Shown here piece by piece: positions 59,934 to 64,000 of a stretch of DNA of 64,000 nucleotides. A program made the translations under genes and the position numbers. How positions within the stretch are numbered: position 1 is the first letter of the stretch; each line of letters begins with the position of its first letter. Location of the stretch: positions 97,065 to 161,064 of the forward strand of contig CAZHUC010000004.1 of the NCBI GenBank assembly GCA_964535825.1. The letters are read 5' to 3'. The notes below the pieces were generated by a model that saw nothing but the letters and a program-made list of their open reading frames with translations, searched no databases and was not told where the DNA came from. The DNA comes from an uncultured Rickettsiales bacterium (GTDB lineage: Bacteria; Pseudomonadota; Alphaproteobacteria; Rickettsiales; SXRF01).

Positions 59934-60000
59934 AAAACGCTGGTAATTTGTATTGGCTGCACACTATATAAGTAAGGAGAGCCCCGTTGCAACCCTATAA

Positions 60001-61065
60001 GTGTGGAAAGTAATGCTTAAGCAATCTGTTCCTTTCGTTGATTTGCGCGGCAAAACGCCGGTCGACCTGTTGCGCAGCTATCCCGACAAAGCAAGGCAGC
60101 TCATTTACGCCGCCCGCCAGACCTACGGGGCATTATCCTATATACCAAGCCTTTTGGCGCTGCCTGCGGCGGACATTTTCTCCCGCCGGTTGCTTAAACG
60201 CAACCAGAACCCGTACCTGCATGAGATCGAGACCATGGCAGGGGTGGTGGGTAGCGCAGGCATGTATTCCCTGAATATCTGCTTTGAGTGGGGCTGTACG
60301 ACCGGTGTATACCGCAACAGTGACAGCGTCTCCATGTTGCGCACACTGGACTGGCCATTCCCCAAGCTGGGCGAGCATGTGATGGTCGTGTGCCAGCAGG
60401 GTAACGCGGGAGTATTCTATAATATCACATGGCCCGGGCTATCCGGCATGTTCACGGGGCTAGCACCCGGACGTTTCTCAGCGGCTATCAATCAAGCGCC
60501 AATGCGTAAGCATGGCCTGACATTTGCCGGTGACTGGGTAAAGAATCGCATGGTTGCCGGGCAGGGGGCTGGCATTCCGCCGGCGCATCTTCTGCGTATC
60601 GTATTCGAGACCGCTTCAACTTATGAAGAAGCAAAATCAATGCTTATAAAAACGCCGATCGCTGTCCCTGCCATCTTTACACTGGCTGGCCTCAACCTTG
60701 GTGAAGGATGCGTCATCGAAAGGCTGGAAACAGCGGCAGAGGTGCGCGAGATCATGGCAGGGGTGAATGTATGCACTTCCAATCATTTCAACACTGCCTT
60801 CGCTGAGTTCGGTAAAGGCTGGTGGCCTCGTGAGATAGATAGTGCGGGCCGTTACAGGCAATCCTCTGCGTTCGCGGGGCATGATCTTGAACAGCCGGGA
60901 TTTGACTGGTTGCAAGCGCCGATCATCAACGCCAATACTCGACTTGCAGTGGTGATGGATGCGGCTACGGGACGCCTGATGGTGCAGGGCTATGAAGGGT
61001 CTGTCGCGGTGACCAATGTGTTCAATTTACCAGCAGCTAATCATGAATACCAACAAGCCATCTAA
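60001..61065 (+). CDS. Ntn-hydrolase of the acid ceramidase/NAAA/peptidase C45-like group
   Basis: Internal G-CTT (Cys99, codon 60295) followed by RTLDW, then FSAAINQ and TSNH; start GTG 60001 or ATG 60013. Confidence 0.7.
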   Translation: MWKVMLKQSVPFVDLRGKTPVDLLRSYPDKARQLIYAARQTYGALSYIPSLLALPAADIFSRRLLKRNQNPYLHEIETMAGVVGSAGMYSLNICFEWGCTTGVYRNSDSVSMLRTLDWPFPKLGEHVMVVCQQGNAGVFYNITWPGLSGMFTGLAPGRFSAAINQAPMRKHGLTFAGDWVKNRMVAGQGAGIPPAHLLRIVFETASTYEEAKSMLIKTPIAVPAIFTLAGLNLGEGCVIERLETAAEVREIMAGVNVCTSNHFNTAFAEFGKGWWPREIDSAGRYRQSSAFAGHDLEQPGFDWLQAPIINANTRLAVVMDAATGRLMVQGYEGSVAVTNVFNLPAANHEYQQAI

Positions 61066-61402
61066 CGAATTCCAGCGTCTGATAAAGGCATTCGGCTATT
61101 CCGTGCAGGGACTGAAAGCTGGCATGTTGCAACCTGCGTTCCGCGTGGAGATGCTTGGTTTACTGGTGCTTTTACCCTGTGCGTTCATTTTTGCGCAAAG
61201 CGGTGTTGAGAGAGCGTTACTTATTGGCAGCCTGCTACTCATACCTGTCGTGGAATTGCTGAATTCTGCGATTGAAGCGGCAATCGACCGTATCTCGCTG
61301 GAGCGTCATGAGTTGTCTGGCCGCGCTAAAGATATGGGCAGTGCTGCTGTGTTGCTGGCGCTGGTAAATGCTGCACTCATCTGGTTTGCAGTGTTGTGGT
61401 AG
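61043..61402 (+). CDS. dgkA: Diacylglycerol kinase (DgkA family)
   Basis: AFGYSVQGL, ELLNSAIEAAID and AKDMGSAAV motifs. Confidence 0.93.
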   Translation: MNTNKPSNEFQRLIKAFGYSVQGLKAGMLQPAFRVEMLGLLVLLPCAFIFAQSGVERALLIGSLLLIPVVELLNSAIEAAIDRISLERHELSGRAKDMGSAAVLLALVNAALIWFAVLW

Positions 61403-61405
61403 CAC

Positions 61406-62719
61406 ATGGAATTTGATGCACTTGATATTGATATAAAGCACCTGAAATATGGCCTTTTCGCCAAAAGACGTTTCCTGCCGATCTTCCTTGCGACATTCCT
61501 TGGTGCATTCAACGATAATTTGTTGCGCTCTGGCCTTGTGGTGCTTATCGCCTATTCTGCCAGCAAAGGCCTTGCCTTGCCTGTGCGCCCGGAAATTCTG
61601 GTAACGATATGCTCCGCATTGCTTGTGTTTCCCATCTTTCTATTTTCATCGATCGCCGGGCCACTGGCGGATAAGTTCGAGAAATCACGGCTGGTGCTCA
61701 TCACCAAGATCGCCGAGATGCTTATCATGTTCTGCGTGTTTTACGGTTTTGCCACGCAGAACATCTACCTGCTGATGGTGATGCTGTTCTTCAGCGGCAT
61801 GCACACCACCTTCTACAGCCCCATAAAATTCAGTATCCTGCCTGACCATCTGGCGAACCGCGAGCTGTTGGCAGCGAATGGGTTTATGGCTGCCGGTAGT
61901 TATCTGGCTATTCTTGGCGGGTTAATCGCGGGTGGATTGCTGGTGGAGATGGAAGGCAATATCATCGGTGGTGTGGCGATACTGATCGCAGGGGTGGGGC
62001 TTCTGGCCAGCCTGTTCATTCCAAAGTCGAGCATAGCAAACCCTAATGTAGAGCTGCATTTCAATATTTGGCAGGGCTCTCGCGCTATCATCCGTAATGC
62101 GACCTACGATATGAACAATTTCCGTGCGATCTTAGGGTTGTCGTGGTTCTTGCTGGTCGGTTCTGTGTATATGTCGCAATTTGCCAATTATGCGCAAGGC
62201 GTGGTGCGCGCAAATAACGAAGTATATATTTTGTTCCTTATGGTGTTCTCGGTCGGCATCGCGTTTGGCTCAATGGTGTGTGACACCTTGCTCAAAGGTG
62301 AGATCACCACAAAGCTCACGCCCTTCATGGCATTGGGCACTGCTATTTTTACATTCCTGATGGTGTTGGCCACGCCGCAGCCAACACATAACGAACTGAT
62401 GGGTTTGTGGGAATTTATCGATGCGCCATCGCACTGGCCGATGCTCGCCTGCATGCTTATGGTAGCTGTGTGCGGAGGCATATATATCGTTCCGTTATAT
62501 GCGTTCCTGCAGTCGCAGGCGCATGAAAAATTCCGTTCGCGCATTATGGCGGCAAGTAATATGTGTGATTCTGTATTTATGACGATTGCAGCTGTTGCAT
62601 CTGCCATACTTTTGATGTTAGGGTTTGGCATTCTCGATTTGTTCTTGGTATTGGCAACGCTTAACCTTGTGGTGGTCTGGTATGCATGGAAATTCACGCG
62701 GCAATCTTCGTCAGTTTAA
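61406..62719 (+). CDS. MFS transporter, LplT / Aas N-terminal lysophospholipid flippase-like
   Basis: FLPIFLATFLGAFNDN, GPLADKFEKS, FYSPIKFSILP and YIVPLYAFLQ motifs typical of the MFS part of fused alphaproteobacterial Aas. Confidence 0.85.
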   Translation: MEFDALDIDIKHLKYGLFAKRRFLPIFLATFLGAFNDNLLRSGLVVLIAYSASKGLALPVRPEILVTICSALLVFPIFLFSSIAGPLADKFEKSRLVLITKIAEMLIMFCVFYGFATQNIYLLMVMLFFSGMHTTFYSPIKFSILPDHLANRELLAANGFMAAGSYLAILGGLIAGGLLVEMEGNIIGGVAILIAGVGLLASLFIPKSSIANPNVELHFNIWQGSRAIIRNATYDMNNFRAILGLSWFLLVGSVYMSQFANYAQGVVRANNEVYILFLMVFSVGIAFGSMVCDTLLKGEITTKLTPFMALGTAIFTFLMVLATPQPTHNELMGLWEFIDAPSHWPMLACMLMVAVCGGIYIVPLYAFLQSQAHEKFRSRIMAASNMCDSVFMTIAAVASAILLMLGFGILDLFLVLATLNLVVVWYAWKFTRQSSSV

Positions 62720-64000
62720 TGCAGCCGACTATTCTAAACCCTTACTTTCTGCCCTGATAAAGGCGCAGAGCAGTTTTGGCAGGAAGACCTGCATCGCCAC
62801 TGATAGTATGGGGGGAGCACTTACTTACAAGGATTTGTTCGTTCGTTCTTCCGTGCTCAGACGTAAATTGTCGGGTCTGATCGGCAATGCTCAGTATGTG
62901 GGTGTGTTGTTGCCTAACTCGCTCGCTGTGGTGGTTGCTTTTCTATCATTGCACATGTTGAAGCGCGTGCCATGCATGTTGAACTTTTCTTCTGGTGAAG
63001 CCAGTATTTCACATGCCTGCAAAATTGCGGGGATGCAGACCATCATCACATCGCGCCTATTCATCGAAAAAGCAAAACTCGACCAGCTTATCAAGGCGCT
63101 ACAGAAGCATTACACCATCGTTTATCTCGAAGATATTCGTAAGCAGATCACATGGAAAGATAAAGTCTCCGGCTTGCTGGATGGGTTCTTTCCTTCTGTT
63201 GGGTTGCGCTCTGTACTTGGTTCTGTAAGCCCGGATGAGGCCGCGGTGGTGTTGTATACTTCGGGTTCCGAGGGTGTGCCTAAAGGCGTTGCGCTTTCTC
63301 ATGCCAATTTACTTAGCAACATCGCGCAGGCGCGCGCACGGCTCGACCTATCGCCACCACACATCATCTTTAATGCATTGCCTGTGTTTCATTCCTTCGG
63401 CCTCACGGTGGGAACGATCATGCCGCTGGTCTGCGGCCTGAGAACGCATTTATATCCAAGTCCGGTGCAATACAAGCAGATCCCGGAAGAAGTATTCACA
63501 TCAGAAGCGACGATCATGCTGGGTACAGATACATTCTTCCAGGGCTATGCACGCTATGCGGAGAAGCATCACTTCAGTCGTATACGACTCGCAGTTGCAG
63601 GTGCTGAGAAACTCAAGGAATCAACACGCAAGGCGTGGATAGAGCAATTTGGTGTTGATATTCTTCAGGGATATGGCGTGACGGAAGCAAGCCCTGTTAT
63701 ATCAGTGAACACACATGATGAACACAAGCCCGGCACGGTGGGCAAGCTCTTCCCAGCAATGGAATATAAACTTGAGCCGGTAGATGGGTTGGAGAAAGGC
63801 GCGCGTTTGTTGGTCAAAGGCCCGAATGTCATGCTGGGTTATCTTAAGGCGGATCAGGCAGGTGTCATTCAGCCGCAAGGTGCGTGGTATGATACAGGAG
63901 ATATCGTGGATGTAAGTGCCGATGGTTATATCTCTATTCTTGGACGTGCGAAACGCTTTGCAAAAATTGCCGGTGAAATGGTCTCGCTGACCGTAGTGGA
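62682..64000 (+). CDS. Aas-like acyl-ACP synthetase (AMP-binding domain only; 3'-truncated; absent from the ORF track because it has no stop)
   Basis: My translation of the frame from ATG 62682: VGVLLPN, LNFSSG, VLYTSGSEGVPKGVALSHAN (63255), GYGVTEASP, WYDTGDI, GRAKRFAKIAGEMVSL. Confidence 0.9.
   Translation, partial: MHGNSRGNLRQFNAADYSKPLLSALIKAQSSFGRKTCIATDSMGGALTYKDLFVRSSVLRRKLSGLIGNAQYVGVLLPNSLAVVVAFLSLHMLKRVPCMLNFSSGEASISHACKIAGMQTIITSRLFIEKAKLDQLIKALQKHYTIVYLEDIRKQITWKDKVSGLLDGFFPSVGLRSVLGSVSPDEAAVVLYTSGSEGVPKGVALSHANLLSNIAQARARLDLSPPHIIFNALPVFHSFGLTVGTIMPLVCGLRTHLYPSPVQYKQIPEEVFTSEATIMLGTDTFFQGYARYAEKHHFSRIRLAVAGAEKLKESTRKAWIEQFGVDILQGYGVTEASPVISVNTHDEHKPGTVGKLFPAMEYKLEPVDGLEKGARLLVKGPNVMLGYLKADQAGVIQPQGAWYDTGDIVDVSADGYISILGRAKRFAKIAGEMVSLTVV

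Follow-up and report, generated by a model that had tools for sequence, protein, structure and literature searches.

Organization of the locus

This report concerns a group of four genes situated at the downstream end of a 64,000-nt stretch of DNA (the window) from an uncultured Rickettsiales bacterium. The genes encode a hydrolase proenzyme of the N-terminal-nucleophile (Ntn) type, the lipid kinase DgkA, an LplT-like transporter of the major facilitator superfamily (MFS) and an AMP-binding enzyme related to Aas. Their coordinates, and those of the intergenic region that precedes them, are presented in Table 1. Positions throughout are those of the window; the fourth gene runs past its end.

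Table 1. Features of the four-gene locus. The window-equivalent position of the 3′-end of aasS is a continuation of the window numbering.
Feature	Position	Strand	Remarks
Intergenic region, folE/operon (divergent)	59934-60012	+	79 nt; alignment of four species of the genus
Ntn-hydrolase proenzyme gene	60013-61065	+	350 aa
dgkA	61043-61402	+	119 aa
lplT-like MFS gene	61406-62719	+	437 aa
aasS (AMP-binding enzyme)	62682 to window-equivalent 64256 (L002:4682-6256)	+	524 aa

It is apparent from the listing of open reading frames (ORFs) and from direct reading of the sequence that the four genes are co-directional, and that together they occupy positions 60013-64256. The hydrolase gene and dgkA overlap by 23 nt (61043-61065), dgkA and lplT are separated by a gap of 3 nt (61403-61405), and lplT and aasS overlap by 38 nt (62682-62719). 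These junctions are exactly as claimed in the initial annotation of this DNA. The ATG at 60013 was taken as the start of the hydrolase gene, a choice that is backed by homologues of 350 aa; a GTG at 60001 represents an alternative start. The upstream gene, folE, is divergent, and the downstream gene, which encodes an ankyrin-repeat protein and is followed by htpG, is convergent. The unit therefore consists of exactly four genes.

A pattern scan for terminator-like hairpins revealed none at any of the three gene junctions. The scan returned six matches, as compared with 4.1 in shuffled sequences. Four of these were weak, five-pair hairpins inside coding sequence, approximately the number expected by chance, and one was situated 24 nt past the final stop codon of the unit.

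Beyond the unit, the 5′-ends of the ankyrin-repeat gene and htpG, which diverge from one another, overlap by approximately 72 nt as called by the ORF finder (L002:7495-7566; window-equivalent 65495-65566). The true start of one or the other of these genes is probably further downstream than the call.

Loss of the acyltransferase domain from Aas

As judged from domain searches and alignments, the fourth gene encodes an Aas that has been cut down to its acyl-ACP (acyl carrier protein) synthetase half (Aas-S), the acyltransferase half (Aas-T) being gone. Nothing else sets the locus apart as clearly as this absence, which was overlooked in the initial annotation. The 524-aa protein matches PF00501 alone (E = 3.5e-57), and PF01553 was absent from it in the Pfam scan. 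It aligns with positions 624-1048 of NF005291, a 1140-residue model of fused LplT-acyltransferase-synthetase proteins (607 bits), and with positions 204-629 of NF005959, the model of E. coli-type Aas. Positions 424-623 of NF005291, which represent the PlsC-type acyltransferase, have no counterpart in the window.

The orthologue from a related genus (g6) is 705 aa in length and contains PF01553 as well as PF00501. In an alignment of ten Aas orthologues, the proteins of relatives (705-728 aa) carry approximately 190 additional N-terminal residues, among which are the motifs NHxSxLDP (HX4D) and FPEGR. The proteins of all four species of the window's genus begin at 'MHGNS', just before the linker, and the whole acyltransferase domain is missing from them. 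The adenylation motifs (TSGSEGxPKG, GYGVTE, YDTGD and the C-terminal GSGK) are intact, and the ratio of non-synonymous to synonymous substitution rates (dN/dS) for aasS is approximately 0.06-0.14 within the genus.

The locus resembles the lplT (ygeD)-aas pair of Escherichia coli, which encodes the 2-acylglycerophosphoethanolamine cycle, in that the gene for an MFS flippase lies directly upstream of aas and overlaps it, and in that Aas-S is conserved. In addition, a complete Aas with both domains (705-730 aa) is found in relatives from the same family as the window. The locus differs from the E. coli pair in that the hydrolase gene and dgkA precede lplT, and in that the transporter falls under the cut-off of the E. 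coli-type model (see below). In E. coli, Aas-T (residues 1-203) is responsible for acylation and for contact with LplT, and Aas-S (residues 204-719) for the formation of acyl-ACP; direct contact between LplT and the acyltransferase domain has been argued to be essential (PMC11416262). The Aas of the window is thus without the very domain that, in E. coli, acylates the lysolipid and docks LplT (PMC11416262).

Against the model of the chlamydial-type enzyme, NF004971, the window protein scores 197 bits, as compared with a cut-off of 847. Stand-alone acyl-ACP synthetases include AasS of Vibrio harveyi and AasC of Chlamydia trachomatis, the latter occurring with a separate LpaT. The window protein is like these in being an adenylate-forming enzyme of approximately 520-540 aa with no fused acyltransferase, so that the acyltransferase, if there is one, would be in trans. 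Unlike them, it is a truncated Aas, which nests within the full-length Aas proteins on a tree.

Identity of the hydrolase

On the basis of profile and structural comparisons, the product of the first gene is a soluble cysteine Ntn-hydrolase proenzyme resembling acid ceramidase and NAAA. In Pfam, it matched PF02275 (CBAH) with 25.3 bits and PF03417 (AAT) with 24.5 bits, the latter a borderline score in relation to the cut-off of 23.2. The NCBIfam model C45_proenzyme (NF040521) was matched with 64.8 bits, under its cut-off of 85. A family profile constructed from 21 homologues was compared with all PDB sequences, and acid ceramidase (E = 1.7e-16) and NAAA (E = 2e-13) were the only matches; isopenicillin-N acyltransferase was not recovered among the PDB sequences at E <= 1. 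No match of the hydrolase to the Pfam family of the NAAA alpha-segment was found.

Cys95 of the hydrolase aligns with residue 1, the nucleophile cysteine, of the NAAA beta-subunit chains, and autocleavage is predicted to occur at Gly94|Cys95. Among the residues that are invariant in the 21 homologues are C95 (preceded by Gly or Ala), R110, D113, N160, N257, H258, R273, D276 and R280. The invariant Arg and Asp are thus found at +15 and +18 from the cysteine, a spacing close to the +16 and +19 of NAAA and acid ceramidase. From the spacing, R110 and D113 are taken to be the equivalents of R142 and D145 of NAAA.

The AlphaFold2 model of the protein (pLDDT 86.7) contains N-terminal helices at residues 16-89, followed by an alpha-beta-beta-alpha Ntn sandwich. 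The top match in a Foldseek search was the NAAA precursor (6dxw; E = 6e-19, TM 0.69/0.73), and the acid ceramidase precursors 5u81 and 5u84 were next (across 6dxw and 5u81, E was approximately 1e-18 and TM 0.66-0.73). The third protein was isopenicillin-N acyltransferase (2x1c), which was matched over its full length with a TM of 0.69. Bile-salt hydrolases and penicillin V acylase were far behind.

The likeness to mammalian acid ceramidase (ASAH1) and N-acylethanolamine acid amidase (NAAA; both MEROPS C89, CBAH superfamily) is thus that of a self-processing cysteine Ntn proenzyme in which the first 94 residues or so form a helical segment, with a nucleophile that aligns with Cys126 of NAAA and a full-length fold match (TM approximately 0.7). 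The differences are that the window protein is only about 20 % identical to those enzymes, is bacterial and presumably cytoplasmic, has neither a signal peptide nor lysosomal features, and is encoded in an operon with lplT-aas; its activity is a prediction from homology. With the isopenicillin-N acyltransferase of Penicillium chrysogenum (MEROPS C45), it shares a precursor length of approximately 350 aa, an internal Gly-Cys site near residue 100 and a cytosolic-type architecture, in addition to the structural match and the weak match to PF03417. It differs from that enzyme in the results of the PDB profile search and in the sub-threshold C45 score.

Neither a signal peptide nor a hydrophobic stretch of 19 residues was detected in the hydrolase (maximum 19-residue Kyte-Doolittle value, 1.55), and nine of its first 30 residues are charged. 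With no hydrophobic N-terminus or transmembrane stretch, the enzyme is expected to be active in the cytoplasm or on the inner face of the membrane, unlike its lysosomal relatives. Values of dN/dS for the gene were approximately 0.03-0.14 among the four species of the genus.

The family to which the hydrolase belongs is represented by 2,315 matches at 90 % clustering, and by 1,221 clusters at 50 %. Its members are almost all annotated as hypothetical, and almost all derive from metagenome-assembled Alphaproteobacteria ('Rickettsiales'-labelled bins and Rhizomicrobium), with a few from Coxiellaceae and Gammaproteobacteria. In the limited collection of literature that was searched, no paper was found that deals with acid-ceramidase-like enzymes of bacteria, whether by themselves or in association with LplT/Aas.

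Two further observations were made on members of this family. In the metagenome proteins P0219, P0220, P0225, P0240 and P0245 (660-837 aa), the hydrolase domain forms the C-terminal part, and the N-terminal 350-550 residues match no Pfam family. In genus g7, the homologue (G009:C9:21312-22324; L032:8013-9025) is split in two, contains an in-frame TAA and is probably a pseudogene; the same genome also encodes a fused LplT-Aas of 1,143 aa elsewhere.

DgkA and the LplT-like transporter

DgkA matches PF01219 (DAGK_prokar) end to end (positions 1-102 of 102; 102 bits versus a cut-off of 22.3; E = 1.7e-29). It is of the small, three-helix membrane-protein type, with hydrophobic segments, and its gene is the sole copy in the genome. 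The substrates of DgkA are diacylglycerol, ceramide and monoacylglycerol, and the classical ceramide assay relies on the phosphorylation of ceramide in vitro by the E. coli enzyme.

The transporter matches PF07690 and has several hydrophobic, transmembrane-like segments. The MFS part of NF005291 (positions 5-423) is matched with 386 bits and NF008397, the model of E. coli-type LplT, with 86.3 bits, the equivalog cut-off of the latter being 297. From these two scores, it is designated LplT-like, of the alphaproteobacterial type. Values of dN/dS for its gene were approximately 0.05-0.09 within the genus. The characterized substrates of LplT are lyso-glycerophospholipids and cardiolipin, not ceramide.

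The Pfam and NCBIfam results confirm the identities initially given to DgkA, the LplT-like protein and the acyl-ACP synthetase part of Aas, and the PDB profile and Foldseek matches likewise support the description of the first gene product as ceramidase-like.

Conservation and evolution of the locus within the order

The distribution of these genes was assessed in 41 genomes of the order, by tblastn of six to eight local proteins against the gene neighbourhoods and by whole-genome searches. Aas was found in 36 of the 41, either as a protein of 710-750 aa or fused to LplT (approximately 1,140-1,158 aa). The hydrolase was present in 20 of 25 genomes of the family that contains the window (f1), and in none of the 16 genomes from other families. 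The order of the four genes is identical in all four species of the genus (G000-G003). More broadly, at least 14 genera of f1 have the hydrolase gene, with or without dgkA, and lplT-aas in the interval from folE to htpG, with start/stop overlaps. A lack of clustering in relatives, which the initial annotation named as grounds for refutation, was thus not observed.

A variety of arrangements was observed. The hydrolase gene is followed by lplT and a complete, two-domain aas in G008, G012, G016, G020, G021, G022 and G024. The same genes are found with dgkA between the hydrolase gene and lplT in G004, G010, G014 and G019, and also in G023, in which the contig stops inside lplT and aas was not seen. 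The order hydrolase-dgkA-lplT-aasS is that of the window's genus. The locus of G007 lacks lplT and dgkA, and aasS comes directly after the hydrolase gene; in G005 and G015, lplT and aasS are found without the hydrolase gene. Finally, G013 has lplT with a complete aas, and its hydrolase gene is situated elsewhere, beside a second gene for an LplT-like MFS protein. The ancestral locus of f1 consisted of folE, lplT-aas, the ankyrin gene and htpG, with lplT-aas as the old core. In this family, the hydrolase gene was inserted upstream of lplT-aas and, in some genera, dgkA came to lie between the two.

The lplT-aas pair is split in genus g12, where the two genes are separated by an XRE-type helix-turn-helix gene (PF01381) and approximately 1.1 kb of extra DNA (L029:5337-5696, in G014; also L057 and L060).

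On a tree of Aas-S sequences, the window's genus is monophyletic (100/99), and the other lineages without Aas-T group neither with it nor with one another. Aas-T has thus probably been lost within the family on three or more occasions, in the presence or absence of the hydrolase, a count that is provisional because the backbone of the tree is weakly resolved. The dgkA gene is single-copy. It is in the operon in some genera, and lies elsewhere in G007, G009, G013, G016 and G024; five complete genomes (G008, G012, G015, G021 and G022) lack it altogether.

Synonymous sites are saturated within the genus, with dS values from 1.2 to more than 5. For most species pairs, dN/dS was approximately 0.03-0.14 for all four genes, similar to the values for folE and htpG; the exceptions were one DgkA pair (0.35) and several pairs in which dS was too saturated for an estimate. 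These results indicate strong purifying selection on the four genes, and low dN/dS values argue that the truncated aas and the retained lplT are working genes. Since the four-gene order has been kept despite the saturation of synonymous sites, and the broader order in the 14 or more genera, the arrangement represents more than chance.

Linkage of the hydrolase gene to lplT/aas outside the family

The 52 next-best hydrolase loci outside f1 were examined, and in six of them lplT/aas was found within a few kb, in differing arrangements. Several distant, metagenome-assembled genomes of Alphaproteobacteria are thereby represented. A fused LplT-AasT-AasS gene is followed by the hydrolase gene in L064 and L067, and the hydrolase gene precedes lplT and a full aas in L096 and L099. 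The genes are divergent in L070, and the hydrolase gene is accompanied by an LplT paralogue in L073. On a tree of 81 hydrolases, the linked genes occupy three separate regions, and no fewer than five changes of state are needed to account for the well-supported branches. By a rough estimate, adjacency to one 3.4-kb locus would arise by chance at approximately 0.5 % per genome, versus approximately 10 % observed outside the family. Besides lplT/aas, the only conserved neighbours in the 52 distant loci were housekeeping genes (hisB and a trmB-like gene), the clustering of ORFs being noisy in these high-GC genomes. These data argue that the functional association between the hydrolase and lplT-aas is real, but not universal.

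Other lipid genes in the genome

Three free-standing acyltransferases of family PF01553 are encoded in the genome, namely a PlsC-like protein, OlsA and an Aas-T-like protein of 248 aa (G000:C1:259962-260708; L128:5963-6709). The last of these matches positions 384-603 of NF006386 with 168 bits. That model represents the fused LplT-Aas, and its T segment is the best NCBIfam match of the protein. The gene adjoins rpsP rather than lipid genes. Most members of the family have it, and it also occurs in other families, regardless of the presence of Aas-T; it is missing in G005, G013, G015 and G036. The notion that this protein is a relocated Aas-T was rejected, as it is also found in relatives that retain Aas-T. 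From its sequence, it is nevertheless a possible candidate for a partner in trans. PlsX is present in the genome as well, so that free acyl-ACP can enter de novo phospholipid synthesis.

An olsB-olsA pair is located at G000:C1:208564-210220. The scores, 283 bits (NF052555) and 200 bits (NF052553), are both under the equivalog cut-offs, yet these are clearly the best matches, and OlsB-like genes were found in all 11 genomes of the order that were tested. The cell probably makes lyso-ornithine lipid, an amide-linked single-chain intermediate, and this compound is one endogenous candidate for the substrate of the NAAA-like amidase.

The intergenic region upstream of the operon

The 79-nt region between folE and the hydrolase gene probably holds the promoter and 5′-leader of the operon, as suggested by the alignment of the four species. 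A conserved block, ACTATATAAGT, in which position 10 is A or G, lies approximately 11 nt upstream of the 8-bp palindrome GTTGCAAC (59962-59992 for the whole). The sequence ACTATATA.GT is invariant in the four species, and ACTATATA(A/G)GT is -10-like. The palindrome is perfect and identical in three of the four; G003 has CTTACAAC in its place. The block and the palindrome may constitute a putative promoter plus operator.

A mini-ORF of eight codons (TTG CAA CCC TAT AAG TGT GGA AAG TAA) is found at 59987-60013. A strong Shine-Dalgarno sequence (AAGGAG) is situated 7 nt upstream of it, and its stop codon overlaps the start of the hydrolase gene (TAATG). As neither the frame nor the Shine-Dalgarno sequence is kept in the other three species of the genus, the mini-ORF was rejected as a real leader element and is probably due to chance.

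Proposed function of the unit

When these data are considered as a whole, the balance tips somewhat towards an operon for the recycling of membrane lipids, derived from the ancestral lysophospholipid cycle of lplT-aas by the addition of two genes and the loss of one domain. In such an operon, lipids with a single chain (lyso or lyso-like) would be flipped by LplT to the cytoplasmic leaflet, as expected from what is known of its family. The cytoplasmic hydrolase, self-cleaved at the predicted site, would remove a long-chain acyl group from a lipid that has been flipped or that belongs to the inner leaflet. The acyl bond cut would, by homology and fold, most probably be amide-linked, and endogenous candidates for the lipid would be N-acyl-(lyso)phosphatidylethanolamine (N-acyl-(lyso)PE) and, because the genome has olsB-olsA, lyso-ornithine lipid. 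The freed fatty acid would then be re-activated to acyl-ACP by Aas-S, an activity expected from its well-established domain identity. As there is no fused Aas-T, the acyl-ACP would presumably be set free and pass to PlsX/PlsY/PlsC or be used by the separate Aas-T-like acyltransferase. In parallel, DgkA would convert diacylglycerol back to phosphatidic acid; that dgkA is optional argues against a role for it as a step of the pathway. The uncertain step in this mechanism is the hydrolase substrate, as none is assignable from sequence.

A number of points weigh against this interpretation. The evidence for co-transcription of the four genes, which may be supposed from the data above, consists of the gene overlaps and the hairpin-free junctions. 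The dgkA gene is not an obligate partner, to judge from its varying position and its absence across the f1 genomes. The idea that the hydrolase makes Aas-T dispensable, as a rule, was rejected, since G015 and G005 have neither; the hydrolase is therefore not the explanation of the loss. No phyletic correlation with any candidate substrate was found, as olsBA occurs in relatives with and without the hydrolase. In the Rhizomicrobium clade, all 29 members are unlinked, and those remote members that were looked up were also beside unrelated genes. With most of the family away from lipid genes, the function of the hydrolase need not depend on LplT/Aas. Lastly, the cysteine Ntn fold is also that of acyltransferases, as exemplified by the third-best structural match, and phospholipase-B-like cysteine Ntn proteins are reportedly esterases.

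The designation of the unit as a lipid-salvage operon in the initial annotation is supported as a label; the specific route of ceramide or N-acylethanolamine uptake and phosphorylation that went with it is not. It had also been suggested that this route lies outside the standard LplT-Aas cycle. The core of the unit, to the contrary, is an ordinary lplT-aas operon of a kind present across the order, and the unit is an elaboration of that cycle. A bolder proposal is that a cytoplasmic homologue of acid ceramidase and NAAA, LplT and a free acyl-ACP synthetase together constitute an undescribed route of N-acyl-lipid repair or salvage that operates without Aas-T. Its substrate would be N-acyl-(lyso)PE, lyso-ornithine lipid or, the bacterium being possibly intracellular, host ceramide or N-acylethanolamine, and the fatty acid would be returned via acyl-ACP. 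That proposal must be considered speculative, and it is on the whole unlikely.

Alternative interpretations

The hydrolase might instead be a lysophospholipase or phospholipase-B-like esterase, which would strip the O-linked acyl group from lysophospholipids flipped by LplT; Aas-S would recycle the fatty acid, and in this sequence of deacylation and rebuilding Aas-T would be dispensable. The context, in which LplT would supply lysophospholipids and Aas-S would use free fatty acids, is consistent with such an activity, as is the situation in G007, where the hydrolase gene directly precedes aasS and neither lplT nor Aas-T is present. Eukaryotic phospholipase-B-like proteins with the cysteine Ntn fold do exist. 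The closest relatives of the hydrolase are, however, amidases, and the esterase activity of the PLBD proteins is itself disputed. Moreover, Aas-T was lost in the hydrolase-free G015 and G005, and most hydrolase-positive genera retain it. An esterase therefore seems improbable.

According to the route originally proposed, exogenous ceramide or N-acylethanolamine, from a host, prey or the environment, would enter via LplT and be split by the hydrolase, the fatty acid would be recycled via Aas, and the backbone would be phosphorylated by DgkA. It is the case that acid ceramidase and NAAA are the closest characterized relatives of the hydrolase and that E. coli DgkA accepts ceramide in vitro; in addition, the genome is small and has ankyrin-repeat genes, and the organism may live inside eukaryotic cells, which contain such lipids. 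The relationship to acid ceramidase and NAAA is, however, one of only about 20 % identity, and nothing indicates import of ceramide or N-acylethanolamine, as the known substrates of LplT (see above) are of another kind. Hydrolysis of ceramide would yield sphingosine and that of N-acylethanolamine would yield ethanolamine, neither of which is a known substrate of DgkA, so that the proposed order of steps fails. Nor can dgkA be an obligatory step, since it is elsewhere or absent in sister genera that retain hydrolase-lplT-aas. The wide occurrence of the hydrolase family in Alphaproteobacteria that live freely in soil and water, Rhizomicrobium among them, also argues against a speciality in host lipids. 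For these reasons, this route is regarded as very unlikely.

It is also highly doubtful that functional coupling is lacking altogether, the hydrolase gene and dgkA having landed beside lplT-aas in a compact genome and been kept there by inertia. The genomes are indeed small and gene-dense, the position of dgkA is fluid, and most members of the hydrolase family are not beside lipid genes. The linkage nevertheless recurs, with other gene orders, in distant lineages (L064, L067, L070, L096 and L099), it is kept across the 14 or more genera with start/stop overlaps, and the roughly estimated frequency of chance adjacency is well below that observed outside the family.

That the hydrolase is an acyltransferase, by which the acyl group of Aas-made acyl-ACP would be transferred to Cys95 and then to an amine, giving N-acyl-PE or an N-acyl amino acid, would accord with the matches to PF03417 and C45_proenzyme, with the full-length structural match to 2x1c and with the neighbouring gene for an acyl-thioester-forming enzyme, but this is most improbable in view of the profile search, which recovered acid ceramidase and NAAA and not isopenicillin-N acyltransferase, the C45 score below the cut-off and the absence from the operon of any gene that would supply an acceptor.

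Implications

The locus described here is the known LplT-Aas system in a variant form, characterized by a recruited hydrolase, by the repeated loss of Aas-T while lplT and Aas-S were kept, and by a mobile dgkA. The case for it at present is one of genomic context and homology. LplT-Aas is the textbook system for the repair of lysophospholipids in the envelope. The whole of the window's genus, and probably at least two to three other lineages, keep lplT and the synthetase half of Aas after the deletion of Aas-T. As lplT and Aas-S are under strong purifying selection without Aas-T, the cycle must be wired differently in these bacteria. The locus also provides a first lead from genomic context for the bacterial family related to acid ceramidase and NAAA, and it points to the turnover of long-chain acyl lipids at the inner membrane. 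If the substrate of the hydrolase is indeed an N-acylated membrane lipid, the enzyme would represent a new lipid-repair activity.

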